Shown in pieces: positions 4,596 to 26,953 of a stretch of 33,156 nucleotides of DNA; the first letter of the stretch is position 1; each line of letters begins with the position of its first letter. This DNA comes from a virus. Taxonomy: Duplodnaviria > Caudoviricetes. The notes below the pieces were generated by a model, which saw only the letters and a list, made by a program, of their open reading frames with translations, was not told where the DNA came from and made no database searches. The DNA is taken from the IMG/VR virus record IMGVR_UViG_3300037851_000800, positions 1 to 33,156 of that record, one strand, 5' to 3'. Both the position numbers and the translations under genes were made by a program.

Positions 4596-5070
4596 TCATA
4601 CGCCGGCGCGGATTGAGGAAAAGTACCCCACGGCGCGGGTGCCCGGCGCGCTAACCCTGGCCGATGTGTTTGCCGGATGGGAAGCCGCCGGGCTAACACC
4701 GGTTGAGGTGAGCACAGAGGATTTGGCGCAACGCATTAATATTGAGTATAATGCGCTGACCACGCAGCTCAAATGGACAACGGACAATATGGACGGGGTG
4801 CAGGCATTGGGGATAATGGCCGATGCGTTTTTGAGTATGTTTTCCGAGTTTTTTAAGGCCAAACCCAGGCCCAAATTTAGCAGCGGCCAGGCGCGGGTAA
4901 TGGTTAATCTTGACGGCAATCAACTGGCGGTGGCGCTGGACCCGCTGCACGATCCCACTGTTGTCAAGGGCGTTTTGGGGGCGGCGCTGGCCGAGGTGAT
5001 CACCCGCAGCCGGTCGGATGATCCGGTGCGGGATTGGCTAAAAATGTGGAGTGTAGACATTAGCTCGTAG
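4576..5070 (+). CDS. Hypothetical protein, last gene of the late operon
   Basis: ATG 4576 with GGAG at 4562 preferred over 4504; converges on the integrase. Confidence 0.55.
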   Translation: MLLNNSDHTPARIEEKYPTARVPGALTLADVFAGWEAAGLTPVEVSTEDLAQRINIEYNALTTQLKWTTDNMDGVQALGIMADAFLSMFSEFFKAKPRPKFSSGQARVMVNLDGNQLAVALDPLHDPTVVKGVLGAALAEVITRSRSDDPVRDWLKMWSVDISS

Positions 5071-5093
5071 CCTGCTCCGAGCCAATGTCTACA
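5052..5093. other. Candidate attP site of the serine integrase
   Basis: 20-bp inverted arms TGTAGACATTAGCTCGTAGC / GCTCCGAGCCAATGTCTACA (18/20) around a central CT dinucleotide, at the integrase 3' end. Confidence 0.65.
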
Positions 5094-6595
5094 AACGATT
5101 TAACCCACTGTCGTGTCTGGATGAGGGTGAATTGATTGCCCGTTATTTCCAGGCGATCAAAAATACTGTGGATGATATTTCGCTGGTGATACAGGTCGGC
5201 GCTAGGAAGTTGGTCCAGGTAACTCAATATAACATTGATGTGTGTTTCAAGATCGGCCATCTCAATTGAGGTGGCCTGTTTTTTTTCCAGAGCGGTAATG
5301 GCGATTTGCAGGGGTTGGTTACGGCTGATAAATTGCTCTTTGGTGATCAGACCGCTGGTGTGCAGGTCTATCAACCGTTCTAATTCCTGCCGTCTGGCCT
5401 GGAGTTGGAGTTGGTTGTTGTTGGGGGCGGTCATTGTGGTCGCAAGTGCCCGGCGTGTATTGTTGACCAGTAGCTGGTAATAATCGCGCTGGTAGGCGAG
5501 TTGCAGTACCAGGCCAATGAGGTGCTGTTCCAATGGTTGGGCGGGGGTAAAACGTTGGGGGCAGGCAGGAGGTTTAGCATCCATATGGCGGTAGTAAGGC
5601 CGTTTTGTGGTGCCGCTGGACATCATTTGGCCGGTGAGTTTGCCGCCGCAATGGCCACAGTAGAGTATCCCGGAGAGTGGATATATCCGGGCGGGTTTAT
5701 TTTTGCGGCCGGGGGTATGATAATGGCTGCGACTGTCCAGCGCGGCGCCCACCCGGCGGCATAAATCCGGGTCCAGTATTGGCTCAAACTGACCGGGGAG
5801 CGGGGGCAGGGTACGGTCGGGGTGGTGGTTTTTGGTCAGGCGGGGTATTTGCCCGGCGTAGAGTTGCCAGCGGGCCAGGGTTGAGGCGACGCGGGTAAAT
5901 GTCCAGGGGGTAGGGGTAACGAGATCAACCTGCCAGCGATAAAAACTTGCCTCGTTGAGTGCCAGGGCGGTATCGCGGTAGCTGCTGCGCCCGGTGGCGT
6001 GGATTTCAAACAGGGCGACGAGCGTATCATAATAGCGCCGCTCTGCGCCGTTGAGAGTGTATGTTTTGACGGTGGGGATGAGATGTTTGGTGATCGGGTC
6101 GCGGTCGCAGCCAAACGGGGTTGGCCCCCAGTGGCGGCCGTTGTTGGCGCGCAGGTGCTGTACCGTGGCCGCCATCCTGTCACCGGCTTTGCGGCTCTCG
6201 GCCTCGGCAAAAGCCATTATCACGGTGGCCATCACCCGGCCGTCGGTGGTGGACAGGTTTATATCCTGGGTGGCGCTGATGAGGGTGAGGCCGCGCGGCT
6301 CCAGTTGGCTATCGTAAAAATGCAAAAATTCAGTGACATTGCGGTGGCTGCGATCAATGGACTCCACGATCACGCCGGTGGTGCCGGGCCGGTCCAAGTC
6401 ACCCAACAGGCGCAGCCAGTCGGGGCGGTTGGCCTCGCGGCGGCCGGAGATGTCTAAATCCTGATACCATTCCAGGGCGGGCAGGCCGTGCGCGGCGGCC
6501 CACTGCTCGATGGCGGCGCGCTGCCGGGCCGGGCTGGCGCTGGGGTTGTTTTCATCCTCCACGGATTTGCGGATGTAGGCGCGATAGAGGGGCAT
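5060..6595 (-). CDS. Large serine recombinase (phage integrase)
   Basis: N-terminal YIRKS catalytic motif, DxDISG, SIDRSHR; recombinase domain (PFGC); Zn ribbon LSGILYCGHCG; coiled-coil C-terminus. Confidence 0.95.
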   Translation of the reverse strand: MPLYRAYIRKSVEDENNPSASPARQRAAIEQWAAAHGLPALEWYQDLDISGRREANRPDWLRLLGDLDRPGTTGVIVESIDRSHRNVTEFLHFYDSQLEPRGLTLISATQDINLSTTDGRVMATVIMAFAEAESRKAGDRMAATVQHLRANNGRHWGPTPFGCDRDPITKHLIPTVKTYTLNGAERRYYDTLVALFEIHATGRSSYRDTALALNEASFYRWQVDLVTPTPWTFTRVASTLARWQLYAGQIPRLTKNHHPDRTLPPLPGQFEPILDPDLCRRVGAALDSRSHYHTPGRKNKPARIYPLSGILYCGHCGGKLTGQMMSSGTTKRPYYRHMDAKPPACPQRFTPAQPLEQHLIGLVLQLAYQRDYYQLLVNNTRRALATTMTAPNNNQLQLQARRQELERLIDLHTSGLITKEQFISRNQPLQIAITALEKKQATSIEMADLETHINVILSYLDQLPSADLYHQRNIIHSIFDRLEITGNQFTLIQTRQWVKSFVDIGSEQATS

Positions 6596-12310: not shown

Positions 12311-12418
12311 TTGATTTGGTGGCGCACGTGGTTTCGGTGGGCGAAGGGCCGCCGCACCTGCCGGGTAGAGCGCTCCGACGGGGCGCGCAAGTGGGCTTAT
12401 GAGGTTTATTTGAATTAA
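12293..12418 (+). CDS. Small hypothetical protein (41 aa)
   Basis: MREQIELIWWRTWFRWAKG...; fills the gap before the next RBS; below the ORF-track cutoff. Confidence 0.3.
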   Translation: MREQIELIWWRTWFRWAKGRRTCRVERSDGARKWAYEVYLN

Positions 12419-12425
12419 GGAGACA

Positions 12426-12743
12426 ATGATGGATCAGTTAAGTTTATTTGGCAACGAGCAGCGCAAGATACGGATATACCTGGACCCGCAGGCGGGTCCC
12501 GCGCCGTGGGAGCAAAAGCCGGTGGTAGAGGTAAAAATCCAAATGGAGCCGCAACCGGACCGCCCGTGGGGTAGCTGGCCGGCCACGCTGGAGCTGTGGG
12601 TTAGTGGTGTTCCGGCGCGGCGGGTGTTTACCACCTGCGCCGATATGCCGGGCCAGTTGCAAACTCTGCTGGCCGAGCGGTTTACCCCGCCACCGGTGGC
12701 AGAGGACGTACCGGTGGGGGTGCCGGAGTGGCTTAATGTTTAG
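12426..12743 (+). CDS. Hypothetical protein
   Basis: AAGGAG RBS; starts with the QLSLF motif common in phage early proteins. Confidence 0.65.
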   Translation: MMDQLSLFGNEQRKIRIYLDPQAGPAPWEQKPVVEVKIQMEPQPDRPWGSWPATLELWVSGVPARRVFTTCADMPGQLQTLLAERFTPPPVAEDVPVGVPEWLNV

Positions 12744-13398: not shown

Positions 13399-13605
13399 AT
13401 GATGGTGGTTGAAATGCTGGTTTTGATGGCGGCGTTACTGATCGGGCCAATCGCGCTCGTGGTAGGGGTGGTGTGGGTGCTGGCGTTACGCGCCGGGGCA
13501 AAGGAAACGCGGCTGGTGGCCGCGTGGCGGGAGTCGCTGGAGCAGGGGCCGCGAGTGGTGCTGGTGCGGCGGTCATCGTTTACGAGTTTGCGTGATGAGG
13601 ATTGA
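13399..13605 (+). CDS. Small single-pass membrane protein
   Basis: GGAGG RBS; long hydrophobic N-terminus. Confidence 0.6.
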   Translation: MMVVEMLVLMAALLIGPIALVVGVVWVLALRAGAKETRLVAAWRESLEQGPRVVLVRRSSFTSLRDED

Positions 13606-13607
13606 CT

Positions 13608-14486
13608 ATGAAAAAATTTAACGTGATGGAATTTATATCACAAAATTCTATCGTCATTGTGCCGCTGTTCCCTATGGCCGTGGTGGGAGTGGCCGCCTAT
13701 TATTTTGCCATCGGGGCCGGGCTGCATTGGGCGCTGGCGCTGGCGCTGGCCGGGGTGGCGGCCTTAGCCATTGAATTGGCCGGGATCAGTTCATTTCGGA
13801 CCCTCACCGGCGTGTATCAGAGTTTCAAGCAGCATCACCATGATGGTTTTGTGGTGGCCGAATTTGCGCTGCTGGTGGTTGGCGTGGCGGTGTACATTGT
13901 GGCCATTGTGCTGGCCTCGCTGGTACTGGAACGGCAATTTGCGGGATCGTGGCCGTTGGGGGCAATGGCCGGGCTGATGGCGGTGGCGGTGTATATTGTG
14001 CGGGCGGTAGGCGAATCGTACACGGTGATTGAGCAGGAAGTCGAACAGGATAAAGAGTTTGAACGGTTCCGGCGCGAACAGCTATTTGAACAGGAATTGA
14101 AAGACCGCGAACACGCCCGGCGAATGGAGAGCAAACAGGAAACTGTGCACGCCTATGAAACGCGCATCGATCTGGAACAGGCCAAAAAGGGCCAGTTGAA
14201 CAGGTCCCCAACGGCCTCGAACAGGGGAAAACAGGGATTGCGGCCACCGGCGGCAACCAGCCCGGCGTTCAAGAGCGCGTTTGAGGCGCAGCCGGAACGC
14301 AACCGCGCGAACAGAGAGCAACGAAAAGAACAGCTATTGAATGTTTTGTCCGAACAGCCGGAGATAGGCCAAAATGAAGCCGGACGAAGGGTCGGCATAG
14401 CGGCCTCAACCGCGTCCGACTATGTTCGGGAACTGACCGAGTCTGGACGGTTAGGCAAAAATGGCAGCGGCTGGAAAGTCAGATAA
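13608..14486 (+). CDS. Multi-pass membrane protein with coiled coil and C-terminal winged HTH
   Basis: Four hydrophobic segments, charged helix, then QNEAGRRVGIAASTASDYVRELTESG HTH. Confidence 0.7.
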   Translation: MKKFNVMEFISQNSIVIVPLFPMAVVGVAAYYFAIGAGLHWALALALAGVAALAIELAGISSFRTLTGVYQSFKQHHHDGFVVAEFALLVVGVAVYIVAIVLASLVLERQFAGSWPLGAMAGLMAVAVYIVRAVGESYTVIEQEVEQDKEFERFRREQLFEQELKDREHARRMESKQETVHAYETRIDLEQAKKGQLNRSPTASNRGKQGLRPPAATSPAFKSAFEAQPERNRANREQRKEQLLNVLSEQPEIGQNEAGRRVGIAASTASDYVRELTESGRLGKNGSGWKVR

Positions 14487-14500
14487 TTGCAGGATTACTT

Positions 14501-15172
14501 ATGCGTAAAACCAACTTGACCCAACTTGCAAAGGCCGCCGGCGCTTACGTGGTGGTGTCCGGCCTCACGGTTGACACTGCGCTGGCCCTGGCCGATAGCG
14601 CCCGCCTGTATGACGTGCCCGGCGCGTGGTATCTGCACGGCCCAATGCTGGCCTACGTGGCCGCCGGGGTGCCGCTGTCAATCAGCCTGGCCGAGCGGGC
14701 GTTGAAGACGATTGACGACCGGCCGGGCGCGATTGTGGCCGACGTGGAGGGCAACGGGCCGGCGCGACGGGGGATTCCGTTTACCGCGCGCGGCAAGCCG
14801 GGCACACTGTTTGCGTCAACGGTTGCCAGCATTTTTGACCATCAGGAGGTTGAGGACAGCAAGGGCCGGGAGCGCCGTCCGGCGGTATGGCACGTGCCGG
14901 TGGGAGATGATAACTGGGTGACGGTGCGCGAGTCGGAATTGCGCGCGTTTTTGGACACGGCCTACAAGCGCAAAAAACACCAATTCAGCCGCAATTATTG
15001 GACAAAATCACGCCGCCCGGCACTGTGGGAAGTGAGATACAGTGCATTTATGCGCCTGTTGACCGAGGCCGGGCTGGTTGAAGGCCGCGCGTTTGGCGCA
15101 TCGGGCCGGTTGGTGATGTTTCCGCGCGAGGCGATTATGTACCTGAAATACGAGAGTCAATTTGCAGTATAG
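14501..15172 (+). CDS. Hypothetical protein, hydrophobic N-terminus
   Basis: AGGA RBS; 223-aa ORF in the same operon. Confidence 0.65.
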   Translation: MRKTNLTQLAKAAGAYVVVSGLTVDTALALADSARLYDVPGAWYLHGPMLAYVAAGVPLSISLAERALKTIDDRPGAIVADVEGNGPARRGIPFTARGKPGTLFASTVASIFDHQEVEDSKGRERRPAVWHVPVGDDNWVTVRESELRAFLDTAYKRKKHQFSRNYWTKSRRPALWEVRYSAFMRLLTEAGLVEGRAFGASGRLVMFPREAIMYLKYESQFAV

Positions 15173-15174
15173 TA

Positions 15175-15248
15175 CCTGCGAACCTGTGACAACCTGCGAA
15201 ACCTGCGAAACCTGCGTAGGCGTAAAATCCGCAACAGGTTTGGCAGGT
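15175..15248. repeat. ACCTGCGAA short tandem repeats with inverted CAGGT copies
   Basis: acctgcgaacctgtgacaacctgcgaaacctgcgaaacctgcg followed by caggtttggcaggt. Confidence 0.65.
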
Positions 15249-15276
15249 GGCGAGTAGGTTAGGAAAGATTAGAAAA

Positions 15277-15819
15277 ATGAAATTGATAGATTGCGCCCGC
15301 CAGGCAATGGCCGAGATGGAATACACCCCGGCCACGACCCGCACTTACATCCGTTCCGGTTTGAGCGTGAGCGAGTGCGCGCGGCTGCGGATTAGGCAGT
15401 TGGATTTTGGGACAAATTTAGTTATACTAAACAACAGGACAACTGTTCTGCCGGATTTGGGCCGGGAGCAACTCCAGGCGCAGGCGGCGCTGGCGCGTGA
15501 TTGGCCCGGTAACGTGGAGGGTTATGTATTCCCGTCCAGCCGGATGCACGGCGGGCGCTGCTGGCACGTATCGCCATCCAGCCTGCAAAAGGCGCTGAAA
15601 CAGGCGGCTCCAGGAGACCGGCGGATCACACCGCGGGTATTGCGGCACTCGTTTGTGCTGCGGTTGCTGGAGGCAGGTTATGATGTTCGCACCGTGCAGG
15701 AGGTGTCCGGTTTTGCGGATGTGGAATCGGTGATGGTGTACCAGCGGATGCTCGACACGCGCGGCGTGGTCAGTCCGTTGGATGAGTTGACATATGCGGA
15801 AAAATCCGCAGATGAGTAG
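15277..15819 (+). CDS. intI: Degenerate, internally deleted integron integrase (probably catalytically inactive)
   Basis: IntI-like segments MKLID...TYI, SGLSVSECARLR, YVFPSSR, HVSPSSLQKALKQAA, LRHSF, LLEAGYDVRTVQE, GVVSPLD; 180 aa; catalytic R1, K, H and H/W positions altered. Confidence 0.8.
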   Translation: MKLIDCARQAMAEMEYTPATTRTYIRSGLSVSECARLRIRQLDFGTNLVILNNRTTVLPDLGREQLQAQAALARDWPGNVEGYVFPSSRMHGGRCWHVSPSSLQKALKQAAPGDRRITPRVLRHSFVLRLLEAGYDVRTVQEVSGFADVESVMVYQRMLDTRGVVSPLDELTYAEKSADE

Positions 15820-15825
15820 TTAGCT
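15795..15825 (+). other. attI-like junction at the integrase stop codon
   Basis: G/TTAGCT core at 15819 whose downstream 11 nt are the exact reverse complement of the end of cassette 1; TGCGGA-AAAA-TCCGCA palindrome just upstream. Confidence 0.65.
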
Positions 15826-15835
15826 GGACTAAGAG

Positions 15836-16507
15836 ATGTCACTTGATAGCATAATCATAACCGGCGATGCCCGGCAAATAGAACTAGCTCAATTCCCTAA
15901 TCGTTACGGTGTGATTGTCGCTGACCCCCCCTGGCCGTATCGTGTGGCGAAAGGACAAGGCACGGCAAAAGACCAGTACGAGCTAATGACTGATAAAGAG
16001 ATTTACGCCATGCCAGTGGGCCATCTTGCCAAGTCCGATAGTGTACTTTTGCTGTGGGGAACGTGGCCGAAACTACCAGAAGCATTAGCTACTATGCAAG
16101 CCTGGGGATTTGAGTATGTGACCGGCTTCCCCTGGATAAAGATGAACAAAAACGGGCATGGTGTTTATTACGGGGTTGGTTATTGGGTGCGCGGTTGTTC
16201 TGAGTTTGTTTTTATCGGAAAGCGGGGCGATGTGTCAGCCCCAAGAATGGATGGGTTTTTAGGGCTAATGTCCCCAAATTTTCAGCACAGCCGAAAGCCA
16301 AACAGCATCCACGAATTAGCCGAAGCATTACCAGGCCCTTATCTTGAATTGTTTGCTCGGCGCTCTATGCCCGGCTGGACAAGTTTTGGAAATGAAGTTG
16401 AGGACATTAAAACGGGGTTGGTGTTACGTCCAGCTAACAAGGGCATGAAGCCGACTTGCTACCAGTCTAAATTTCAACTCCCCCTTGCTGGCGAAGGGGA
16501 TTTATAA
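15836..16507 (+). CDS. Cassette 1: MT-A70-family N6-adenine methyltransferase
   Basis: ADPPW, LLLWGT, WGFEY, HSRKP and LELFAR motifs. Confidence 0.9.
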   Translation: MSLDSIIITGDARQIELAQFPNRYGVIVADPPWPYRVAKGQGTAKDQYELMTDKEIYAMPVGHLAKSDSVLLLWGTWPKLPEALATMQAWGFEYVTGFPWIKMNKNGHGVYYGVGYWVRGCSEFVFIGKRGDVSAPRMDGFLGLMSPNFQHSRKPNSIHELAEALPGPYLELFARRSMPGWTSFGNEVEDIKTGLVLRPANKGMKPTCYQSKFQLPLAGEGDL

Positions 16508-16557
16508 TCAATCAATCGGGGCCAGCCCGCAAGCGGCTTATGCCCCACCAGTTAGGG
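16432..16557 (+). other. attC1 (126 bp)
   Basis: AGCTAAC...GGGCAT(G)AAGCCG(A)CTTGC / GCAAGCGGCTTATGCCC...GTTAGGG. Confidence 0.9.
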
Positions 16558-16575
16558 GCTAAAGCGGATTGGCTT

Positions 16576-17568
16576 ATGGCAAAGGTAAGAATAACTCATA
16601 TTGACGGCAAACTCCCTAACCTTGCGCTTATGAAATTGGCCCATTGGCACAAGGCGCAAGGTGATGAGGTGTTTTTTGCCAGAAATATCGAAAGAACGAT
16701 GTTTGAACCGGATTATGATATAGTTTACGGTTCGACTATTTTTACCTTTAGCCAGGCCAACACAAGCCGCTTTATGGTAAATTTCCCTAACGCCATTGTC
16801 GGCGGAACCGGAACCGGAAAAATGAACACAGTTGAGGAAATCACCGGAAAACACGAGCATTATGATTACTCAATTTACTCTGAGTATCAATGGTCTATCG
16901 GCTTTACTCAGCGAGGATGCCGCTTAAATTGCCCGTTTTGTGTGGTCCCGAAAAAGGAAGGCCGCCCCCGATCCGTCAATACAATTTGGGATATTTACCG
17001 GCCAGGGACTCCAAAAAACATTTGTCTGTTAGATAATGATTTTTTCGGACAGCCTAAAGAGCAATGGTTAGAGCGGATCAGTGAAATAAAAAGTGGTGGG
17101 TTCAAGGTTGCATTTAATCAGGGTATCAATATCAGGCTGATTACTGATGAGGCCGCTTACTGGTTGGCTCAAATTCCGTATTATGATGACCAATTTAAAA
17201 AGCGCAGGCTTTACACGGCCTGGGACAACCTAAAGGATGAAAAGATTTTCTTTGATGGCGTTGACCGTCTGGAAAAAGCCGGAGTGCCACCGTATCACCT
17301 GATGGTTTATATGCTCATCGGCTTTGACCCGTCCGAAACCTGGGAGCGCATTTTTTACCGTTTCAATCGGATGGTTGAGCGTGGTATCCGGCCTTATCCG
17401 ATGGTCTATAATGATAATCGAGATTTGCGCCGCTTCCAGCGTTGGGTAGTGCGTAGGTATTACGAGGTCATAAGTTGGTCTGATTTTACGCAACCTAACA
17501 AGGGCATGAAGCCGAATTGCTACCCTTCCAATTTTCAACTACCCCTTGCTGGCGGAGGGGACTTTTAA
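16576..17568 (+). CDS. Cassette 2: radical SAM protein, phage type
   Basis: TQRGCRLNCPFC CxxxCxxC motif, LLDNDF; N-terminal IDGKLPNLALMKL; ATG 16576 lies after attC1. Confidence 0.85.
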   Translation: MAKVRITHIDGKLPNLALMKLAHWHKAQGDEVFFARNIERTMFEPDYDIVYGSTIFTFSQANTSRFMVNFPNAIVGGTGTGKMNTVEEITGKHEHYDYSIYSEYQWSIGFTQRGCRLNCPFCVVPKKEGRPRSVNTIWDIYRPGTPKNICLLDNDFFGQPKEQWLERISEIKSGGFKVAFNQGINIRLITDEAAYWLAQIPYYDDQFKKRRLYTAWDNLKDEKIFFDGVDRLEKAGVPPYHLMVYMLIGFDPSETWERIFYRFNRMVERGIRPYPMVYNDNRDLRRFQRWVVRRYYEVISWSDFTQPNKGMKPNCYPSNFQLPLAGGGDF

Positions 17569-17618
17569 TCAATCAACCGGGGCCGGCCCGCAATCGGCTT
17601 ATGCCCCATCTGTTAGAG
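17493..17618 (+). other. attC2 (126 bp)
   Basis: ACCTAAC...GGGCAT(G)AAGCCG(A)ATTGC / GCAATCGGCTTATGCCC...GTTAGAG; close copy of attC1. Confidence 0.9.
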
Positions 17619-17625
17619 GGACAAA

Positions 17626-17859
17626 ATGAGCAAAATTATTAAAACTCGGTCACAAGAAATTACATTATCAAAAACTTGTGCTGGTGTTAGTCTTAATATC
17701 AAAAGAAAAGACGGTCGGCATCAATCTGTGCATATTTTCGACGAAGCTATACCTGAAATTGTAGATGAATTGAATCACATGATGGTCAAAAAGTCCGCCC
17801 AACAAGCGGTTGCAGGGGACGCCAAGAGCGAGGTCGTTAATCAAAAAACCGGCGCGTAA
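17626..17859 (+). CDS. Cassette 3: small hypothetical protein
   Basis: ATG 7 nt after the attC2 R' box; stop inside attC3. Confidence 0.7.
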   Translation: MSKIIKTRSQEITLSKTCAGVSLNIKRKDGRHQSVHIFDEAIPEIVDELNHMMVKKSAQQAVAGDAKSEVVNQKTGA

Positions 17860-17916
17860 GGTAGTTGGTTTTATTCTGCGGTTCTAAATCGCGCCCCTGA
17901 ACCGCAGGCATTAGGC
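17797..17916 (+). other. attC3 (120 bp), R' box ATTAGGC instead of GTT
   Basis: GCCCAAC...GCGGTT(G)CAGGGG(A)CGC / GCGCCCCTGAACCGC...ATTAGGC. Confidence 0.85.
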
Positions 17917-17938
17917 GGACCCCGAAGGAGAAATAATC

Positions 17939-18187
17939 ATGCAGGAATATGTTATCGCAATGAAGAGCGGTCATTCGTTCCGTGTGCAAATAAAAGACTT
18001 TTTATCATTTATATCGGATTTACAAACTGCTATCAATCCGCAGGCCATAAACAACTTTTATGCTCAGGGTGGAGTTATGTTCGATGTTGCCGATGTTTCT
18101 GCAATCTATCCACTGTCCGCCCAACAAGCCAATGGTGCGGACGCTGAAAGTAAGGCTCTATTAACCGGGGAAAAGTCTTTAGGCTAA
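17939..18187 (+). CDS. Cassette 4: small hypothetical protein
   Basis: AAGGAG RBS; stop inside attC4. Confidence 0.75.
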   Translation: MQEYVIAMKSGHSFRVQIKDFLSFISDLQTAINPQAINNFYAQGGVMFDVADVSAIYPLSAQQANGADAESKALLTGEKSLG

Positions 18188-18225
18188 AATACATTCACGC
18201 GCCGCTCATTGGCGGGGCGTTAGCA
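18119..18225 (+). other. attC4 (107 bp)
   Basis: GCCCAAC...GCCAATG(G)TGCGG(A)CGC / GCGCCGCTCATTGGC...GTTAGCA. Confidence 0.88.
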
Positions 18226-18237
18226 GGATAATCGCAA

Positions 18238-18621
18238 ATGAAACAATCGTTTGAAGTAATATATACATCTAACGCAGAGGAACTAATAAAACAACTATTT
18301 CCTGAATTGATTGAGCGTCAATCGTATCGTTTTAAATTCGTCCCGTCTGGTGATCAATGGTTTTTGCCTGTCTATGAATTTGAGGGATACGCAAAAGATT
18401 TTGATTTGCAAAACAAGGATGATGTATCCGTAAATGCAAACTTTGTTGTACTTAAGGATACATTCGTTGATTACACCGATTATAGATTTTATGCAAAGCT
18501 ATTGCGTTTTTTATGGAGATTCACTTGGTTGCATCGGCTTGTTGATATAGTCTCAAAGTGGCACAATCCTGCTAACAAGCATTTTCACCGGACGGCACAA
18601 CCAAGCGTTTTATCGGAGTAG
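18238..18621 (+). CDS. Cassette 5: hypothetical protein
   Basis: AGGA RBS; AT-rich; stop inside attC5. Confidence 0.7.
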   Translation: MKQSFEVIYTSNAEELIKQLFPELIERQSYRFKFVPSGDQWFLPVYEFEGYAKDFDLQNKDDVSVNANFVVLKDTFVDYTDYRFYAKLLRFLWRFTWLHRLVDIVSKWHNPANKHFHRTAQPSVLSE

Positions 18622-18688
18622 GTTTATTATTTGCGGTAGGCATTTTACCATAGGCCGCGTGGCCGCCGGTGAAATGTCACCGTTAGGT
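18570..18688 (+). other. attC5 (119 bp)
   Basis: TGCTAAC...CATTT(T)CACCGG(A)CGGC / GCCGCCGGTGAAATG...GTTAGGT. Confidence 0.88.
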
Positions 18689-18701
18689 TGCCTGAGCAAA
18701 G

Positions 18702-19328
18702 ATGAGTTTAAGACAGCGGATTTCTTTAATTGAAAAACCAACCGAATGGCTAAACGAGATGGTCACACTATATCACTATATGCACCGGTCAATCCACCAA
18801 AAATCTTGCCCGTTTGGTTGGGCTGTGTCGTTTGATGGTCAACTCGTTCAGCCGGACGGCAAACCAAGCGGTTTTATTGTATTCGCCAGTATCCACTTCA
18901 CCCGCTTGCATAATGAATTTGGTTATTCTGGTCTGCCTACAAAATGGCAGGTATTGAGCCTGGCCAGGCTTTGGCTTCATGATGACTTGCCGCGCAATTC
19001 TGAAACGTGTGTTATCGGTAAGGCTATGAAATTAGTACAAAAACGTTGGCTTGAGGTTCATCCGCCGCGTTTTTTGAAACAGCCATATCACATAGTAAAA
19101 ATTATTTCTTACGCTGATACTAGGTACCACGATGGTACAATTTACAGAGCTGCAAATTTCCGCGAAAGCGGGAGAACTGTCAGCCAGAAACGGCACAAAA
19201 ACAGCCGTGGGCCAGGTATGGGCGAAGCGGAATTGATTAGATTTATCTATGATCTTGATGAACCCAAATGGGTTTATGAACCGTTGCAACCGAGGCTTTT
19301 TGAGGAATTTGATTTCACGGCAGCCTAA
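18702..19328 (+). CDS. Cassette 6: Mom-like (GNAT-fold) DNA-modification protein
   Basis: YHYMH, LARLWLHDDLPRNSET and IISYAD-x3-HDGTIYRAANF motifs of Mom-related proteins; TAA stop lies within R'' of attC6. Confidence 0.75.
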   Translation: MSLRQRISLIEKPTEWLNEMVTLYHYMHRSIHQKSCPFGWAVSFDGQLVQPDGKPSGFIVFASIHFTRLHNEFGYSGLPTKWQVLSLARLWLHDDLPRNSETCVIGKAMKLVQKRWLEVHPPRFLKQPYHIVKIISYADTRYHDGTIYRAANFRESGRTVSQKRHKNSRGPGMGEAELIRFIYDLDEPKWVYEPLQPRLFEEFDFTAA

Positions 19329-19448
19329 CAAGCATTTCCAGCCGAATTACTACCGCTGCGGTTAACGAGCCTAACACCGCTGGCGATGGTGGCTCTTAAT
19401 CAAACTAAATTTGCTGGCCCGTAATCGGCTAAAATGCGGGCGTTGGGC
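19323..19448 (+). other. attC6 (126 bp)
   Basis: GCCTAAC...GCATTT(C)CAGCCG(A)ATTAC / GTAATCGGCTAAAATGC...GTTGGGC. Confidence 0.88.
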
Positions 19449-19560
19449 TGCTTTAATATACTCCCACAAAATGTTCAAATTTTTACATTCCATGTATTCC
19501 AACTGTTCTATAGTTATGATATAATAGTATGTAATAGAATCTTTTTTATCATTGATTTTT

Positions 19561-19588
19561 TTGTCAAAAATTGTCAAGGTGTTATAAT
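19561..19588 (+). promoter_or_regulatory. Internal promoter of cassette 7
   Basis: TTGTCA-16-TATAAT with TG extension in an AT-rich leader. Confidence 0.6.
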
Positions 19589-19625
19589 CTCAACTCCCAA
19601 TCTTTTAAAAATAGGAGATGATACA

Positions 19626-19844
19626 ATGGGTGGAGAAATCAAAGAGAGATTCACTGATTTTTTATACTCAAGACCTTCGTTTCTTGAGGGGGTCGCTCGT
19701 GTCGTTGATTTTGCAAATGTTTTGCAGGAATACAACGCATCATCTACACCTGAAATTGCAGATGAAAGAGCGACACGCGCTGATTGGGGTGCTGTAGGTA
19801 GTGATATGTATAAAACACTTAGGAGTATAAAATATGAACTGTGA
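19626..19844 (+). CDS. Cassette 7 gene A: small conserved-looking hypothetical protein (72 aa)
   Basis: AGGAG RBS at 19613; PSFLEGVARVVD...EYN...ADW-x-AVG-x-D pattern. Confidence 0.7.
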   Translation: MGGEIKERFTDFLYSRPSFLEGVARVVDFANVLQEYNASSTPEIADERATRADWGAVGSDMYKTLRSIKYEL

Positions 19845-20037
19845 TAGATGCGGTAAAGAGGTTCACGAAGATAAAGACGATTGGGTTTATTGTTTATATT
19901 GCGGGCTGAATTTATGCCTAGATTGTTGTGGGAAAGTCAACAATCTAGGTGCGTGCGAAAAGTGTGCCGCCCAACTAGCCAATGGAGCGGACGCTGAAAC
20001 AACGGCTCGGTTAGCTGAAGATAAACCGTTAAACTAA
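19834..20037 (+). CDS. Cassette 7 gene B: small Zn-finger protein
   Basis: AGGAG RBS; four CxxC pairs; stop inside attC7. Confidence 0.65.
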   Translation: MNCDRCGKEVHEDKDDWVYCLYCGLNLCLDCCGKVNNLGACEKCAAQLANGADAETTARLAEDKPLN

Positions 20038-20075
20038 AATTCATTCGCGCGCCGCTCATTGGCGCGGCGGTGTGA
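19969..20075 (+). other. attC7 (107 bp), terminal, R' box GGTGTGA
   Basis: GCCCAAC...GCCAATG(G)AGCGG(A)CGC / GCGCCGCTCATTGGC; close copy of attC4. Confidence 0.85.
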
Positions 20076-21051: not shown

Positions 21052-21616
21052 TATTTATCCCGCATCGGCCAACACGCCCGGCCAGGCGGAGAGCCGCACC
21101 GCCTACGCCCGGATGGCGCGCGAGGCGGCGCAGGGCAATTTGCCCTGGTGGAACGATTATGTGGCCCTTAAAATGATGTTCCCCCAGTTTAAAAACTGGC
21201 GGGTGTGGGCGTTTGTGGCCTGGGACAGCCAGGCGATGAGCGCCAAACAGGCGCAGGGCATTATCACCCAACTGGATTTTGCCCAACAGGTTTTGGGCAC
21301 CAAAACCGACCGGGCGATCCGGGTTTGGCGCAAACGTTTTGGCGACGAGCTGGAGAACGCCAAAACGTGGGCGCAGGCCGCGCCGCTGTACCAGTATCGC
21401 CGCGATTTTTACGATGCCCTGGCCGCGGTGGCCAGCCGCCCCGACCCACGAGCGCACAACGACCGCAAACTGGCGCTGGAAATGCTGGGTGACTACACCT
21501 CCCGCCAAAAACTGGCGGCAGAGATTGACCTGCCCCAATTGCCGGGGGTTTTGGACGAGTTATTAAGTCAGGTTTATGGCAATGATCGGGATGATTCCGG
21601 CGACGCCGGCCAATAA
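21041..21616 (+). CDS. terS: Probable terminase small subunit
   Basis: Directly upstream of and overlapping terL; HTH-like TQLDFAQQVLG...IRVWRK; DRKLALEMLG motif. Confidence 0.6.
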   Translation: MMDNIYPASANTPGQAESRTAYARMAREAAQGNLPWWNDYVALKMMFPQFKNWRVWAFVAWDSQAMSAKQAQGIITQLDFAQQVLGTKTDRAIRVWRKRFGDELENAKTWAQAAPLYQYRRDFYDALAAVASRPDPRAHNDRKLALEMLGDYTSRQKLAAEIDLPQLPGVLDELLSQVYGNDRDDSGDAGQ

Positions 21617-23153
21617 ACTCAATAATACCGAGGCCCTGCACCGGTTTGTGGCTGAGGTCCGCCACGCCGGTTGCCCGCCGGATCAGATACGCAATTTTTT
21701 ACGGGCGGGATACGTGCCGCAGCCCAAACAACTGGAATTTCACGCTGCGGCTCGTTGTTGCGATGAGCCGGGCGGCCCCACCGAGATAGGGTTTGGCGGC
21801 GCGCGCGGCCCCGGTAAAAGCCACGCCCTGTTTGCGCAAATGGCATTAGACGATTGCCAGCGTTTCCCCGGCCTGAAATTTTTGTTTTTGCGCAAAATAG
21901 GCAAACAGGCCCGCGAGAGTTTTGAGGATTTACGGTTGCGGGTGCTGGCCCGCGTGCCCCACGATTACAACAGCAGCCGCGGGTTGCTGACATTTGCCAA
22001 CGGCTCGCGCATTATTTTGGGCCATTTTAAAGACGAGCGGGACATTGACGCCTACCTGGGCATTGAGTACGACGGCATTGTGCCGGAGGAAGCCACCTCG
22101 CTGAGCAGCACCAAACACCAGGCCCTGCGCGACAGCAACCGCACCAGCAAAACGGGCTGGCGTCCCCGGATGTACAACAGCACCAACCCCGGCGGCGTGG
22201 GTCACGCCTGGTATAAAAAACGATTTGTGGAACCGGCCCTGGCCGGCATTGAGGGCGACACCCGTTTTATTTTTGCTACGGTAGATGACAACGTATTTGT
22301 GGATGCGGATTATCGCCAAAAGCTGGAGCAGAACACCGGCTGGCGGCTGCGGGCGTATCGGTATGGTGACTGGGACATAGCCGCCGGGCAATTTTTCACC
22401 AACTGGCGGCGCGCGGCGCACGTCATTTCCCCGTTCCGCATCCCCGAAAACTGGCGGGTGTGGCTGGCAATGGACTACGGGTTTACGCACTACACCTGCG
22501 TGTACCTGCTGGCCCAGGGCGACGGGATGATCTACATTGTGGACGAGCACGCCGCCCGCCAATGGCTGCCGGAGCGTCACGCCGGGGCCATTGCCGCCAT
22601 GCTGCAACGGCACCAGGTTGACCCGGCCCGGTTGTGGGGTTTTGTGGCCGGAGCCGATGTGTTTGCCCGGCGCGGCACGTTTGGCGGCACCGTGGCCGAC
22701 GAGTACAAAAAACTTGGCATCAAATTACGCCGGGCCAATGACGACCGCATTAACGGCGCGGCGCAACTGCTGCGCCTGCTGGGTGATGTGGAGATGGGCA
22801 TACCGCCCCGGTTGCAGATTTTTGATAATTGCGCCCGGTTGATCGAGTGCCTGCCCGCCCTGGAACACGACCCGCACCGCCCGGAGGATGTGCTCAAATG
22901 GGACACCGACGACGACGGTGTGGGCGGCGATGATCCCTACGACGCGGCGCGTTACGGGGTAATGGCTGTGCATCGCGCCCAGGTGCGCGGCGGGGCAATG
23001 GACTGGTACACTCAGGCTGCGCCGGGTGGGTCTGCCCCGGCTGCGCCGGGTGGGTCTGCCCAGGCTGCGCCGGGTGGGGGGATACTGCCCTCAGCCCGCA
23101 GCGAGGCCGAAATTGAGCAATTATTGAACGAGGCCGCGTATGGCGACGAATAG
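21576..23153 (+). CDS. terL: Terminase large subunit
   Basis: Q motif PQPKQLEFH, Walker A GGARGPGKS, Walker B GIVPEEAT, STNPGGVGH, nuclease MDYG and DDPYDAARY. Confidence 0.95.
   Translation: MAMIGMIPATPANKLNNTEALHRFVAEVRHAGCPPDQIRNFLRAGYVPQPKQLEFHAAARCCDEPGGPTEIGFGGARGPGKSHALFAQMALDDCQRFPGLKFLFLRKIGKQARESFEDLRLRVLARVPHDYNSSRGLLTFANGSRIILGHFKDERDIDAYLGIEYDGIVPEEATSLSSTKHQALRDSNRTSKTGWRPRMYNSTNPGGVGHAWYKKRFVEPALAGIEGDTRFIFATVDDNVFVDADYRQKLEQNTGWRLRAYRYGDWDIAAGQFFTNWRRAAHVISPFRIPENWRVWLAMDYGFTHYTCVYLLAQGDGMIYIVDEHAARQWLPERHAGAIAAMLQRHQVDPARLWGFVAGADVFARRGTFGGTVADEYKKLGIKLRRANDDRINGAAQLLRLLGDVEMGIPPRLQIFDNCARLIECLPALEHDPHRPEDVLKWDTDDDGVGGDDPYDAARYGVMAVHRAQVRGGAMDWYTQAAPGGSAPAAPGGSAQAAPGGGILPSARSEAEIEQLLNEAAYGDE
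23013..23078 (+). repeat. 24-bp tandem repeat (2.75 copies) in the terL tail
   Basis: c(a/c)ggctgcgccgggtgggtctgcc units encoding QAAPGGSA/PAAPGGSA. Confidence 0.9.
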
Positions 23154-24480
23154 CATTTTTGATCTGCCCGAATTTAAACCGCTGGAATTGCGCTGGAATA
23201 CCCGCCTGCGGGAATTGACCCGCCGCCAGAAATATTACGACGGTACCATTTACAAAAATTTGTGGGGTCAATTGGGCTGGCTGGGGCCGCGTTTGTACAA
23301 GGGCATCAAACCACTCTACCTGCCCCTGGCCCGGGCCGTGGATGTTGACGCCGGCATTGTGCCCGGCGGCTGGGCAATGGACGAGGACGCGCCGGCGGCC
23401 TGGAGCGCGGCCCGCGACGTGCTGTTTGACTGGTCCAACTGGAGCACCGAGGGAGTTTTGTTTGTTCATTACGGGGCCACCTACGGACAGAGCGGCCTTA
23501 AAATTGCCGATCTGCGCGAGCAGCAGCGGGTGATCATTGCCCCGGTGAAACCCACTTGTTTTATGCTGGTGCCCGGCGGCGAATATGACAGCACGCCCCG
23601 GCTGGCGTTGTGGATTGAAACCCGCACCGACGCGAGTGGGGGCTACGAATACGCCGAGGTGATTACGGCGGAGGAAATTAAAACCTACAAAAACGGCGCG
23701 CTCACCGGCTTTGACGAGCGCGAGCCGGCCTACCCCAATGAGTTGGGTTTTGTGCCGTTTGTGGAGGTGGAGCACATCAAAACCGGCGAGGCGTTGGGCG
23801 AGGCCACGTTTCAAAAAGCCATCCCCATGCTCGATGAGGTGAACGAGATTGCCAGTTACCTGGCCGATGTGATCAAAAAACACGCCGAACCGCAATGGGC
23901 GGTATTTGGCGCGGGGGCCAGCGATTTGAACAAAAGCGGCGAGAATGTGTGGTTTTTTGACTCGGCGGAGAGCCGGGTGGAACCGGTGCTGGCTACCGTA
24001 GATATTCCCGGCGTGCTGGAGTTTGTGCGGGAAATTCGCGACCAGGTGTTTGGCAGCCTGCCGGAGCTGGCGTTTGACGAATTAAAAACCAAAACGCAGA
24101 TCGCCACCGCCACGCTGGAGTTGCAGTTGATGGAGCTGGTGCTCAAAATCAAACGGGTGCGGCCCAATTATGACCACGGCCTGGCCGACGCGCTGCGGCT
24201 GGCCGGGCGCGCCGCGGGCACAATGGGCGCGCGCGAGATCACCGCGCTGGATGACGAGGCGCTGGAGTTTGACCCCGACCGCCCGGTGTTACCGTTGGAC
24301 CCGCTCACCGAGATACAACTGGAATTACAGCAAATAGCATTGGAACGGGAACGGATGTTACTGGACGCGCGGGAGGAGGGCGTGAGCCTCATCCCGCCGC
24401 AATTACGGGAAAAAACCGAACCGGATGAGGATGAACCGGACGAGGATGAGCCGGACGAGGCGGAGGATGATAATGCCTGA
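23140..24480 (+). CDS. Portal protein
   Basis: 446 aa directly after terL; YYDG and NELGFVPFV motifs of SPP1-like portals; acidic tail. Confidence 0.85.
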   Translation: MATNSIFDLPEFKPLELRWNTRLRELTRRQKYYDGTIYKNLWGQLGWLGPRLYKGIKPLYLPLARAVDVDAGIVPGGWAMDEDAPAAWSAARDVLFDWSNWSTEGVLFVHYGATYGQSGLKIADLREQQRVIIAPVKPTCFMLVPGGEYDSTPRLALWIETRTDASGGYEYAEVITAEEIKTYKNGALTGFDEREPAYPNELGFVPFVEVEHIKTGEALGEATFQKAIPMLDEVNEIASYLADVIKKHAEPQWAVFGAGASDLNKSGENVWFFDSAESRVEPVLATVDIPGVLEFVREIRDQVFGSLPELAFDELKTKTQIATATLELQLMELVLKIKRVRPNYDHGLADALRLAGRAAGTMGAREITALDDEALEFDPDRPVLPLDPLTEIQLELQQIALERERMLLDAREEGVSLIPPQLREKTEPDEDEPDEDEPDEAEDDNA

Positions 24481-25393
24481 CCTGCGCCCGGCGCAAACGT
24501 TTGCGCGCGAGATGACCCAATTGGAGCAAGAATATTTGTGGGAGCTGGATAGCTACCTTAAAAATACTCGCCGCGCTATTTTGGATGAGCTGGTTGGTAA
24601 CGGCATTAACAACCCGCAATTGCCCGCGCTGGCGCGCCGCGAGCTGGATAGTTTGCGCCGCGATCTGGAGCATTTGGCCCGTAACAAGGCGCTGAGTATT
24701 GACTACATCTCCGCCGGGCAGGTGGACCGGTTGTTAAAATCGTTGCGGCGGGTGCGCCCGGCCGCGCCGGGGCTGGATGATTTGCAAGCCTCCACCCAAA
24801 CCAGCCGCCGCGCTATTTTGGGCGGTCTGGTGGACAACCTGGTGGGACTGGTGGATGAAATCCAGGCGCGGTTGACCGGAGAACTGGGCCGCCTGCGCAG
24901 CAGCAACACCCCCACCGAGGCAGCCGTTGACCGGTTGCTGGCTTCCGATGTTGCCGACGGCCGGGTGAGCGTGTGGCGCAATGCCGGTAATATTGTAGCC
25001 ACCGAGAGCCAGGTTGATCTATGGACGGCGGGCACCAGCATTGTGAGCAATTATCTGGACGCCGGGCAGAGCCAGGCGGGGGAGCGCTGGAAAAAACAGT
25101 GTATTGCCGCCATTGACGAGCGCACGACCGACTGTTGTTTGCAGGCGCACGGCCAGATTGTTGATCTGGATGCGCCGTTCAAATTGACCGGCGAACCGCG
25201 TTTTAGCGATGAGCAGCAAAATCCGCCGTTCCACTGGTATTGCCGCACCGCCACCTCGTTGTGGGTGGAGGAGTTTGAGCAGGTGGGTACCACTACCGCC
25301 GATATGAGAGACGCCGCGCGGGCCGAAATTACCGCGCGCCAGGATGGCAGCCGCGTGGAAATCCACCCGGCGCACGCCACCAGCAGGAGATAA
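24473..25393 (+). CDS. Minor head morphogenesis protein (Mu gpF/SPP1 gp7-like)
   Basis: AAIDERTTDCC...HGQ...PPFHWYCRT motif; follows portal. Confidence 0.85.
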   Translation: MPDLRPAQTFAREMTQLEQEYLWELDSYLKNTRRAILDELVGNGINNPQLPALARRELDSLRRDLEHLARNKALSIDYISAGQVDRLLKSLRRVRPAAPGLDDLQASTQTSRRAILGGLVDNLVGLVDEIQARLTGELGRLRSSNTPTEAAVDRLLASDVADGRVSVWRNAGNIVATESQVDLWTAGTSIVSNYLDAGQSQAGERWKKQCIAAIDERTTDCCLQAHGQIVDLDAPFKLTGEPRFSDEQQNPPFHWYCRTATSLWVEEFEQVGTTTADMRDAARAEITARQDGSRVEIHPAHATSRR

Positions 25394-25428
25394 CGGGGCG
25401 TAGCCCGTAAAAAACGAATTGAGGAAAA

Positions 25429-25956
25429 ATGACAGACCCAAACAATAACCAACCTGTACCACCCGCTGCCCCGGCAGAGCCGGCGCAAGCCCCGGCCCAA
25501 CCCCCGGCGCAGCCCAAACCGGAGCCGGAACCCGGCCCGGTGCCGTATGACCGTTTTAGGGAGGTCAACGAAAAATTAAAAAACACCGAAACCCGCCTGG
25601 CCGAAATGGAAGCGGCGGCCAAAACAGCCGCCGAAAAAGAATTGGCGGCGCAGAACAAATGGCGGGAACTGGCCGAAAAACGCGAGGCTGAACTCAAACA
25701 GGAACGGCTGGAACGGCTGCGGCTGACCGTAGCCACCAGCAAGGGGTTGCCGTTAGAACTGGCGACCCGGTTGCAGGGCGAGGATCAGGCCGCGCTGGAG
25801 GCCGACGCGGAGGCGATATTGCAGTATTTGAAACCCAGCAGCGGGCCGGGCGTGCCGCCGCCGGGCCGCAAACAACAGAGCGCCGCGCTGGATATGTCTA
25901 CGATGACGCCGGATGAAATTCGTAAAAACAAGGCGAAACTTTTGACACAAATGTAA
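25429..25956 (+). CDS. Capsid scaffolding protein
   Basis: Pro-rich N-terminus, VPYDRFREVN, coiled coil, LATRLQG; precedes capsid gene. Confidence 0.8.
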   Translation: MTDPNNNQPVPPAAPAEPAQAPAQPPAQPKPEPEPGPVPYDRFREVNEKLKNTETRLAEMEAAAKTAAEKELAAQNKWRELAEKREAELKQERLERLRLTVATSKGLPLELATRLQGEDQAALEADAEAILQYLKPSSGPGVPPPGRKQQSAALDMSTMTPDEIRKNKAKLLTQM

Positions 25957-26056
25957 GAATTTTCTAACTAATTTAAAATGCCCTCTCCTCGTGGCGTTGC
26001 ACGTAAAAAACGAAAGGTACTATAGGGAAATAATTTAGCCGACGAGGAGATAATCA

Positions 26057-26953
26057 ATGGCAAACATTACGTCAACTACGTTGGGAGATTCCATCCCGAC
26101 AATTGTAGCAGCAGAAGCCCTGGGCTATTTAAAAGCCAATACCGTGCTGGCCCGTTTGGTGGCGCGGGATTGGGACAATGAGGTAGCCACCTATGGGCAA
26201 ACTGTGGATATTGCGTTTACCGGCGCGCTGAGCGTTAACGACAAAAGCGCGGACACGGTGATCACCCTGCAAGCCCCCGCCGACACCAAAAAATCCGTGA
26301 CCCTCAACAAACACAAGGAAGTTTCTTTTCTGATGGAGGATTACGCCAAGGCTTTGGCCCGCCCCGATATGTTTTCGCAGTTGGTGGCCGACGCGATGGC
26401 CGTGGTAGCCGAGCAGATTGACGGCGACATTGCGGCGTTGTACTCCGGTTTCAGCCAGAGCATTGACGCGACAACCGGCCTGGCCGAGGACGATTTTAGG
26501 GAAGCGCGCCGGCAGCTTAACGCGGCCAAGGCGCCGCTGGCCCAGCGCTATGCCGTGCTGCACGAGGACGCCGAGTTTGAGGCCCTGGGCATTGACCGGA
26601 TTGTCAACCGGGATTACGCCGAGAGTTTGGGCAGTATGGCCAGCAACAGCTATGTTAACCGGGCGTTTGGGTTTGACATTTTTATGGATCAAAAAATCGC
26701 CACGGCTGCGTCGGAGGCTAAAAACCTGTTTTTCCAGCGCAACGCCATTGCCCTGGCCACCCGGCCCCTGCCGCCCGCCCCGCAAAACGCGGGTGTGGTG
26801 CAGACCATGATGAACGAGGACGGCATTGGGCTGCGGGTCACGATGAGCTACGACCACAACTATCTGGGCGTCAAACTGACCATTGACGTGCTGTACGGTG
26901 TGGCCGAATTGCGCGACAACCACGGCGTGGTTGTGCGCACCGCCGAAATTTAA
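26057..26953 (+). CDS. Major capsid protein (HK97 fold, P22-coat-like family)
   Basis: GAGGAG RBS; GQTVDI, AEQIDGDI and IDVLYGV motifs; 298 aa after scaffold. Confidence 0.9.
   Translation: MANITSTTLGDSIPTIVAAEALGYLKANTVLARLVARDWDNEVATYGQTVDIAFTGALSVNDKSADTVITLQAPADTKKSVTLNKHKEVSFLMEDYAKALARPDMFSQLVADAMAVVAEQIDGDIAALYSGFSQSIDATTGLAEDDFREARRQLNAAKAPLAQRYAVLHEDAEFEALGIDRIVNRDYAESLGSMASNSYVNRAFGFDIFMDQKIATAASEAKNLFFQRNAIALATRPLPPAPQNAGVVQTMMNEDGIGLRVTMSYDHNYLGVKLTIDVLYGVAELRDNHGVVVRTAEI

Follow-up and report, generated by a model that had tools for sequence, protein, structure and literature searches.

The virus record IMGVR_UViG_3300037851_000800, a single sequence of 33,156 nucleotides (nt) that was analysed over its full length and is referred to here as the window, encodes a serine integrase, repressor-like proteins, and terminase, portal, capsid and tail proteins. 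Judged by this gene content, it is a temperate tailed phage. Its plus strand carries a series of seven gene cassettes, headed by a gene derived from an integron integrase (IntI) and by a predicted attI site. The features of this region are as follows.

15277..15819, plus strand: IntI-derived gene (180 amino acids), co-oriented with the array; best family TIGR02249, best PDB match IntI4 (2a3v)
15796..15826, plus strand: predicted attI, overlapping the last codons and the stop of the intI-like gene; crossover G|TT at 15819/15820
15836..16507, plus strand: cassette 1 (15820-16551), MT-A70 family orphan methyltransferase with a DPPW motif; the open reading frame (ORF) ends inside attC1
16432..16557, plus strand: attC1, 126 nt, 88% identical to attC2
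16576..17568, plus strand: cassette 2 (16552-17612), radical SAM protein with a CxxxCxxC motif and an N-terminal cobalamin-binding-like domain
17493..17618, plus strand: attC2, 126 nt
17626..17859, plus strand: cassette 3 (17613-17910), ORF of 77 amino acids without family match
17797..17916, plus strand: attC3, crossover A|TT in place of G|TT
17939..18187, plus strand: cassette 4 (17911-18219), ORF of 82 amino acids without family match
18119..18225, plus strand: attC4, 107 nt, 81% identical to attC7
18238..18621, plus strand: cassette 5 (18220-18682), ORF of 127 amino acids without family match
18570..18688, plus strand: attC5, 119 nt
18702..19328, plus strand: cassette 6 (18683-19442), Mom-like GNAT protein
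19323..19448, plus strand: attC6, 126 nt
19626..20037, plus strand: cassette 7 (19443-20069), with an AT-rich leader, a promoter-like site at 19561-19588, an ORF of 72 amino acids and a Cys-rich ORF of 67 amino acids
19969..20075, plus strand: attC7, end of the array, right end G|GT

A hallmark of integrons is an array of attC sites, which have R and L boxes as well as extrahelical bases, and such an array is present here. Seven attC sites lie on the plus strand (16432-20075), each with R''/L''/L'/R' boxes. Four of them reach scanner scores of 19.0-20.5 and one scores 17.3, with attC3 at 16.5 and attC7 at 15.5; the background in three block shuffles of the window was 0.33 matches per window at score 17 and 0 at score 18. 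The canonical GTT is found in 5/7 sites, and attC3 and attC7 have non-canonical crossover bases. Taken alone, the folding z-scores of the sites are modest (bottom strand, -1.2 to -3.0). The cassettes are 732, 1061, 298, 309, 463, 760 and 627 nt long. Out of 11 bases at each 5' end, 11, 6, 8, 9, 11, 10 and 9, respectively, pair with the R'' of that cassette. The GC content of the array is 0.445, against 0.579 in the rest of the window. By these features, the window holds a real seven-cassette integron array within a temperate phage. The original prediction was confined to positions 15836..19328 and thereby omitted the intI-like gene, attI and cassette 7.

Most cassette ORFs end within their own attC, so that the C-terminus of the protein is encoded by the recombination site. 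For 5/8 cassette ORFs, nothing was matched in the profile and family libraries tried. A promoter scan gave results at chance level (10 vs 9.9), and upstream no cassette promoter was identified. One terminator-like hairpin each is located in attC1 and attC2.

Three enzymes encoded by cassettes

As originally claimed, the three largest cassettes (732, 1061 and 760 nt) encode an MT-A70 methyltransferase, a radical SAM protein and a Mom-like protein, and all three are true attC cassettes. Their size was rejected as evidence by itself, as these enzymes are simply long ORFs.

The cassette 1 protein is placed in the MT-A70 family by a PF05063 score of 99.2 bits, well above the cut-off of 23.9 (3e-28), and by its DPPW motif, which aligns to solved MT-A70 proteins in the PDB (2e-18). 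It also matches phrog_359 (9e-57) and the PADLOC model MTase_II (2e-47), and is 51% identical to a cassette protein in another phage locus, L269. The cognate endonuclease that would accompany the methyltransferase in a restriction-modification system was not found at the array: a PADLOC scan of 9 array proteins returned only MTase_II and a weak Cas56g match (E 0.004), and no restriction partner. The gene shares its family, its DPPW motif and the lack of a detected restriction partner with the MT-A70 orphan methyltransferases of phages (PF05063, phrog_359), and differs from them by sitting in an attC cassette. Cassette 1 also occurs at 87% identity in locus L067 (matching window positions 15817-16455), where the similarity extends from the same G|TT crossover into attC among other neighbours and without an intI. 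Of 41 viral MT-A70 homolog loci, one (L067) clearly contains the gene as a cassette and another (L098) has a single attC next to it. The cassette 1 copy in L067 (563-1205) occupies a secondary G|TT site behind a gene that encodes no integrase.

The cassette 6 protein combines the GNAT fold with the profile match expected of Mom. PF25680 is matched at 60.4 bits against a cut-off of 27.1 (2.5e-16), phrog_1384 at 2.5e-18, and PDB entry 8bv8 is the best match both by sequence (8e-5) and by fold (E 6.7e-9, template modelling score 0.63). The protein has 307 homologs, and a search of viral contigs with it returned no locus. Residues R89, D139 and R141 align to R111, D149 and R151 of Mu Mom, and T102 takes the place of S124, with the numbering offset deduced from the S124A mutant. 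Furthermore, H25, Y26 and Y148 are invariant in 32 aligned sequences and are equated with H58, Y59 and Y159 by motif only. According to PMC13219725, a helix-turn-helix (HTH)-like insertion (175-209) is essential for the activity of Mu Mom. Compared with Mu Mom as described there (8bv8), the window protein keeps the GNAT fold and, by alignment, R111, D149 and R151, but has a structural identity of about 20%, Thr for S124 and a seemingly shorter or absent HTH-like insertion, and is borne on a cassette. Since the insertion seems to be missing from the predicted structure, the product of the Mom-like enzyme may differ.

The cassette 2 protein belongs to the radical SAM superfamily by its CxxxCxxC motif and its fold. 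Its PF04055 score of 23.5 bits lies below the cut-off of 29.5, phrog_9298 is matched with an E-value of 9e-56, and 6,747 homologs were found; C115, C119 and C122 are invariant in 45 sequences. The predicted structure, with a mean predicted local distance difference test (pLDDT) value of 84.7, matches AprD4 (Z 16.7), MgmA (15.8), MiaB (15.1) and TsrM (14.8). An N-terminal Rossmann-like domain and a radical SAM core are common to the window protein and to AprD4, MgmA, TsrM, MiaB, MtaB and RimO (Z 14-17), from which it differs in being much shorter, with 12-17% identity and no Cys in the N-terminal domain. Methylthiotransferases (MiaB/MtaB/RimO) bind a second Fe-S cluster through N-terminal cysteines. 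A methylthiotransferase role was rejected, as no Cys precedes the CxxxCxxC motif and TIGR00089 scores 16 vs 251 bits. The cassette probably encodes a travelling accessory enzyme, most likely a radical SAM methylase with a B12-binding domain.

The proposed tie of this enzyme to DNA modification was not borne out. No link to DNA was found, the fold is AprD4/MgmA/MiaB/TsrM-like, and a methyltransferase lies near 6/13 non-cassette radical SAM homologs compared with 2/11 control loci, a trend without statistical significance (p=0.21). The radical SAM cassette follows a methyltransferase cassette in two arrays, those of the window and of L171, and a homolog of the window protein was detected by the Pfam survey as a cassette ORF in a co-oriented phage array. 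PAPS reductases occur near 3/13 of the radical SAM homologs. The array of L053 (2786-5684) has no intI and includes a radical SAM gene at 87% identity with only an attC remnant; two L053 cassettes share starting bases with window cassette 6.

Co-oriented integrons in phages

An IntI alignment search returned 393 viral stretches, the best 80 of which were examined and provide all viral IntI locus counts given here. The co-oriented layout of integrase gene and array was found in 28 of these 80 loci. They were selected for having an attC downstream or a GTT where intI ends; L146 and L149, as duplicates, and L170, as doubtful, were excluded. At least one attC is present in 24/28 loci (77 in total), and these arrays contain 96 cassette ORFs with a median length of 98 amino acids, one extra ORF having been dropped because it was intI itself. 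Terminase, portal, HNH, primase and DnaC genes are among the flanking genes of the co-oriented loci, in which intI occupies a position similar to that in the window. This layout is shared by the GenBank virus Rctr41k (KX853513), whose intI is intact and whose array has a methyltransferase cassette. No attC array was found in 24 terminase-related loci, which gave three isolated weak matches.

On the IntI tree, the 23 co-oriented phage IntIs fall into two separate clades, each with a support of 1.00, which group with the IntIs of the likely host class (support 0.98). Bacterial IntI loci are divergent in 13/33 cases, compared with 2/33 with a downstream attC. Likewise, 5/5 host-class loci with visible attC are divergent (30 scanned). 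These data bear on the idea that the window array is a captured piece of a host chromosomal integron without a phage-specific function. Captures of this kind are described in Vibrio and Shewanella phages (PMC9892861), and both the grouping of phage with host-class IntIs and the array GC content below that of the phage backbone would agree with such an origin. However, the separate phage clades, their co-orientation and a cargo unlike that of bacterial arrays (0/71 methyltransferases) speak against it, leaving simple capture very unlikely.

Parts of this picture are already known. Qi et al. (2023) described phage integrons and clusters of attC sites lacking integron integrases (CALINs) with five cassette methyltransferases, proposed an anti-restriction role for orphan methylases, and reported that phage attC sites recombine with IntI1 (PMC9892861). 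The complete phage integrons in that report, 21 cases among 10,705 genomes, are captured integrons of chromosomal or class 1 type. Both phage attC arrays with methylases and the anti-restriction idea for phage cassette methylases are thus prior knowledge (PMC9892861). The present loci resemble those of Qi et al. in having attC arrays and cassette methyltransferases, and differ from what PMC9892861 describes in the co-oriented layout (28/80), the attI at the intI end, the two phage clades, the isogenic phage pairs and the clade of inactive IntIs presented below. A co-oriented arrangement of intI and array is known from Treponema integrons (PMC3607928). Those are chromosomal and belong to spirochaetes, whereas the arrays described here are carried by phages, and their attI either overlaps the stop codon of intI or comes directly after it. 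In searches of open-licence PMC papers and bioRxiv, neither co-oriented IntI clades specific to phages nor a clade of dead IntIs was seen to be described.

A phrog_2045 protein is encoded upstream of intI and outside the cassettes in six integron phages, in four of them directly before intI (L153:9250-10008, L159:9152-9985, L175:6844-7686, L197:6113-6937, L206:8760-9995 and L217:9080-9997). In L253, an integrase of 345 amino acids (871-1908), 30% identical to phage IntI, is located inside the attC array, and another integrase-like ORF follows the last attC.

An inactive integrase and cassette exchange

The IntI-derived protein of the window scores 78.6 bits against TIGR02249, for which the cut-off is 265. 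The catalytic R-K-H-R-H-Y positions are occupied by S, a gap, R, R, F and Y; neither of the two His is present, nor are the Lys loop and the first catalytic Arg. About 90 N-terminal amino acids are also missing relative to the family, whose members have 256-288 amino acids. The protein is thus neither a full-length IntI nor equipped with all the catalytic residues, both of which belong to a complete integron. The array does not conform to the definition of a CALIN either, which has no intI nearby, as an IntI-derived gene and attI stand at its head. Since catalytic residues are absent, cassette shuffling needs an outside integrase. As far as its sequence tells, the array acts like a CALIN in this dependence and is integron-like, not a complete integron. 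The attI site lies beside the integrase gene with insertion at G|TT, and this G|TT is located at the stop codon both in the window and in L040. The latter has the same gene-attI junction in a similar sequence, followed by a different first cassette.

A contig from the sequencing run X1 spans 13573-15823 with one difference; being near-identical, it places the intI deletion in the X1 assembly too. An assembly error as the cause of the deletion was rejected on account of this contig, although X1 is possibly the source sample itself.

The degenerate proteins form a monophyletic group, the dead clade (support 1.00, 20 sequences, FastTree, 272 columns), with a weak placement among the IntI clades (supports 0.38 and 0.84). 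None of the 20 members has the first Arg, the Lys loop or the first His, Tyr is missing in 12/20, and the integron-specific insertion is partly deleted across the whole clade. All six catalytic residues are kept in 23/23 co-oriented phage IntIs, and 26 host-class IntIs retain Arg, Lys, the second His and Tyr. Values of dN (nonsynonymous substitutions per site) of 0.39-0.49 and of dS (synonymous substitutions per site) from 1.0 to saturated in three DNA pairs indicate that the dead-clade family is under purifying selection. A search with the dead-IntI alignment found no member in the viral contigs, in 24 GTDB loci or in 401 host-class genomes. The 24 GTDB loci contain ordinary IntI-like proteins (34-48%), and strong IntI matches are present in 36/401 genomes of the likely host class. 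As metagenomes yielded only two short dead-clade contigs, the genomic context is available for 3/20 members and the first cassette for 2. A precedent for retention of a dead phage tyrosine recombinase is MrpR of Bacillus phage SP-beta, a protein with a tyrosine-recombinase fold that no longer works as a recombinase and persists as a DNA-binding protein (PMC10516654). MrpR is described there as a lysogeny repressor, whereas the dead clade derives from IntI and heads an attI-cassette array. Another route of integrase loss is seen in L153 (10001-10978), where a co-oriented phage intI has an in-frame stop and its ORF ends at 219 amino acids.

Evidence of exchange comes from sequencing runs and from near-identical phages. 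The X1 contigs break at attI (15823), where the depth falls from 19 to 12, and they end at the attC3 crossover (17909). In one contig, of depth 7, position 17913 is joined to 18681. This joint skips or replaces cassettes 4-5, two options that are indistinguishable, over a span of 772 nt, reported as 767 nt plus a 5-nt overlap. Parts of cassettes 4-7 are uncovered in the portion of X1 that was read and were not used as evidence. Run X2 belongs to a second study; among the eight pieces listed, six short ones match the phage without differences, including the attC1 junction and the Mom gene. Loci L144 and L214 share 99.97% identity across 11,002 nt that end at the attI crossover, beyond which their cassettes differ, and the same applies to L154 and L155 (99.97% over 10,994 nt). 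In addition, L154 and L269 have in common, at different array positions, a block of three cassettes that measures 1,309 nt and shows 100% identity. Within cassette 7 (19845-19976), X1 also contains an allele with several substitutions at a depth of about 6.

These observations have to be set against the possibility that the window array is a frozen relic, with a dead integrase, two decayed attC crossovers and no further exchange of cargo. The lost catalytic residues and the deletion of about 90 amino acids would fit a relic, as would A|TT in attC3, G|GT in attC7 and the radical SAM gene of L053 with its attC remnant. Yet the branches of the X1 contigs coincide with attI and the attC3/attC5 crossovers, the 11/11 end pairing is kept in cassettes 1 and 5, and L040 has another first cassette behind the same gene-attI junction. 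A frozen relic is therefore considered highly unlikely. The original notion of a shufflable kit stands in so far as the cassettes are real and cassette 1 recurs in L067, but it has to be amended, as the window IntI is without catalytic residues and the phage is unable to shuffle alone.

Cassette cargo and proposed protection from restriction

In the survey of cassette functions in related phages that accompanied the original prediction as a suggestion, DNA methyltransferases predominated among the annotated cassette genes of phage arrays. Pfam assigns 10/96 cassette ORFs to DNA methyltransferases, in addition to DpdA and a PAPS-reductase/ParB pair. With PHROGs and ORFs of at least 120 amino acids, 13/29 are DNA methyltransferases in the co-oriented phage arrays. 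The corresponding numbers are 1/150 for flanking genes (p=4e-11; 150 of 154 ORFs, four long ones having been left out), 2/71 (p=7e-7) for genes that precede terminase in 11 relatives without an integron, and 0/71 for 22 bacterial arrays (p=1e-8). For the bacterial control, 32 loci were screened; those with short flanks were dropped, as were two near-identical loci of class 1-like type. A second phage set, chosen by attC pattern (29/80 loci with flanks), contains 12/31 methyltransferases and one Mom-like cassette. An MT-A70 cassette (L269) and a Mom-like cassette (L253) recur in other phage arrays. Locus L163 carries a cassette gene similar to DpdA and queuine tRNA-ribosyltransferase (11951-12517), whose sequence suggests 7-deazaguanine DNA modification as cargo. 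A PAPS-reductase/DUF3440 and ParB gene pair is situated within a long cassette segment of L150 (13200-14902).

Considering the array and its cargo together, it is reasonably likely that the MT-A70 and Mom-like cassettes of this integron array modify adenines of the phage DNA and so counter host restriction, and that an integrase from outside moves the cassettes. The promoter-poor array would be read through from the upstream operon, and the cargo would be made during replication, before packaging. Orphan methylases and Mom-like enzymes could then block restriction enzymes via adenine modification before the DNA is packaged. Cassette exchange would take place via the IntI of the host or of a co-infecting phage, and the protection set would be altered by gain or loss of cassettes rather than by ordered shuffling.

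Several findings weigh against this interpretation. The claimed enrichment of the cargo in DNA-modification enzymes holds in the survey, with 13/29 and 12/31 against 1/150, 2/71 and 0/71, but the window has only 2/8 credible modifiers, 83/96 cassette ORFs in co-oriented arrays are not methyltransferases, and per phage these enzymes are found in 9/24 cases compared with 2/11 integron-free relatives (p=0.44). The controls are limited in that the flanks include core genes, the bacterial set is mostly from other phyla and PHROGs is phage-biased. Furthermore, several loci have neighbouring dataset numbers and may be non-independent, and the L154 = L269 cassette is in both sets. The MT-A70 copy in L067 appears frameshifted, and 40 more distant viral MT-A70 and 13 other radical SAM homologs almost never adjoin attC. 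The predicted structure of the Mom-like protein has no helix after residue 150, with pLDDT values of about 59-73 over residues 161-180. Regarding exchange, the joint of 17913 and 18681 rests on one contig with a 30-nt side, from a run that is possibly the source sample and of which about 75% was read. A search of GTDB genomes for the attI pattern gave one chance match only.

Some of these points would be accommodated if the array were a general trap for accessory genes that replaces the variable stretch separating replication from packaging genes. Methylases would then appear as the commonest recognisable accessory genes of phages, and not as the cargo of a dedicated counter-defence platform. 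Most cassettes are small ORFs without known function (median 98 amino acids), the per-phage frequency of methyltransferases is not significantly raised, the distant homologs of the MT-A70 and radical SAM proteins are mostly non-cassette phage genes, and methyltransferases also lie upstream of terminase in 2/11 integron-free loci. In integron phages, however, methyltransferases are nearly all within cassettes (13 vs 1), and at least three unrelated methyltransferase classes recur together with DpdA and Mom, compared with 0/71 in bacterial arrays. Such a trap is regarded as rather unlikely, and adenine modification against host restriction remains the preferred reading of the array.

A broader scenario, less likely than not, can be offered tentatively. 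Chloroflexota phages may have domesticated the integron as a counter-defence platform, in which phage IntI clades with a head-to-tail arrangement of intI and attI exchange cassettes for N6/N4/C5 methylases, MT-A70, Mom-like proteins and DpdA among genomes that are otherwise identical. In one lineage, a conserved dead IntI would bind attI/attC and either steer the host integrase or block it, while the radical SAM enzyme perhaps adds an undescribed base. Anti-phage cassettes have reportedly been found in bacterial integrons by two bioRxiv studies from 2024 (10.1101/2024.07.02.601686 and 10.1101/2024.07.02.601719). The common element is the use of integron cassettes in the conflict of phage and host, while the cassettes described here are on the phage side and encode mainly orphan DNA methyltransferases. 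Integrons are regarded as bacterial devices and were recently seen to stock anti-phage genes; here, phages appear to run a version of their own. Fast site-specific turnover of orphan DNA methylases would provide a route to altered restriction protection without homology. The phage cassettes also represent a bounded library of new modification enzymes and small phage proteins, which are candidates for anti-defence screens, and the conserved dead IntI clade poses the question whether a phage protein regulates integron recombination.

Palindromes are depleted in the window: CATG occurs at 0.28 of the expected frequency, and CTGCAG (8.2 expected), AGGCCT (6.5) and GAATTC (6.0) are each found 0 times. 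CTAG is also strongly avoided across the whole window. This avoidance fits restriction pressure on the phage, as an indirect indication. The host is probably an Anaerolineae-type Chloroflexota bacterium, judging from the terminase match and the IntI tree. The best genome match of the window terminase is from Caldilineaceae (65%), and matches from Verrucomicrobiota reach 47-58%.

Outside the array, two further features of the phage were assigned.

5060..6595, minus strand: large serine integrase (PF00239 and PF13408; phrog_95, 4e-71)
21576..26953, plus strand: packaging and head module with terminase large subunit, portal, head morphogenesis, scaffold and major capsid genes, adjoining the array downstream

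The serine integrase is likely the prophage integrase and separate from the cassette system. No Rfam match and no terminal repeat were found in the window. A virion-region protein (46-1107) contains repeats of 63 nt (21 amino acids). At the end of a replication gene with a DnaA_N domain, a 26-nt inverted repeat (88%) is located at 12005-12078, possibly an origin or a regulatory site.

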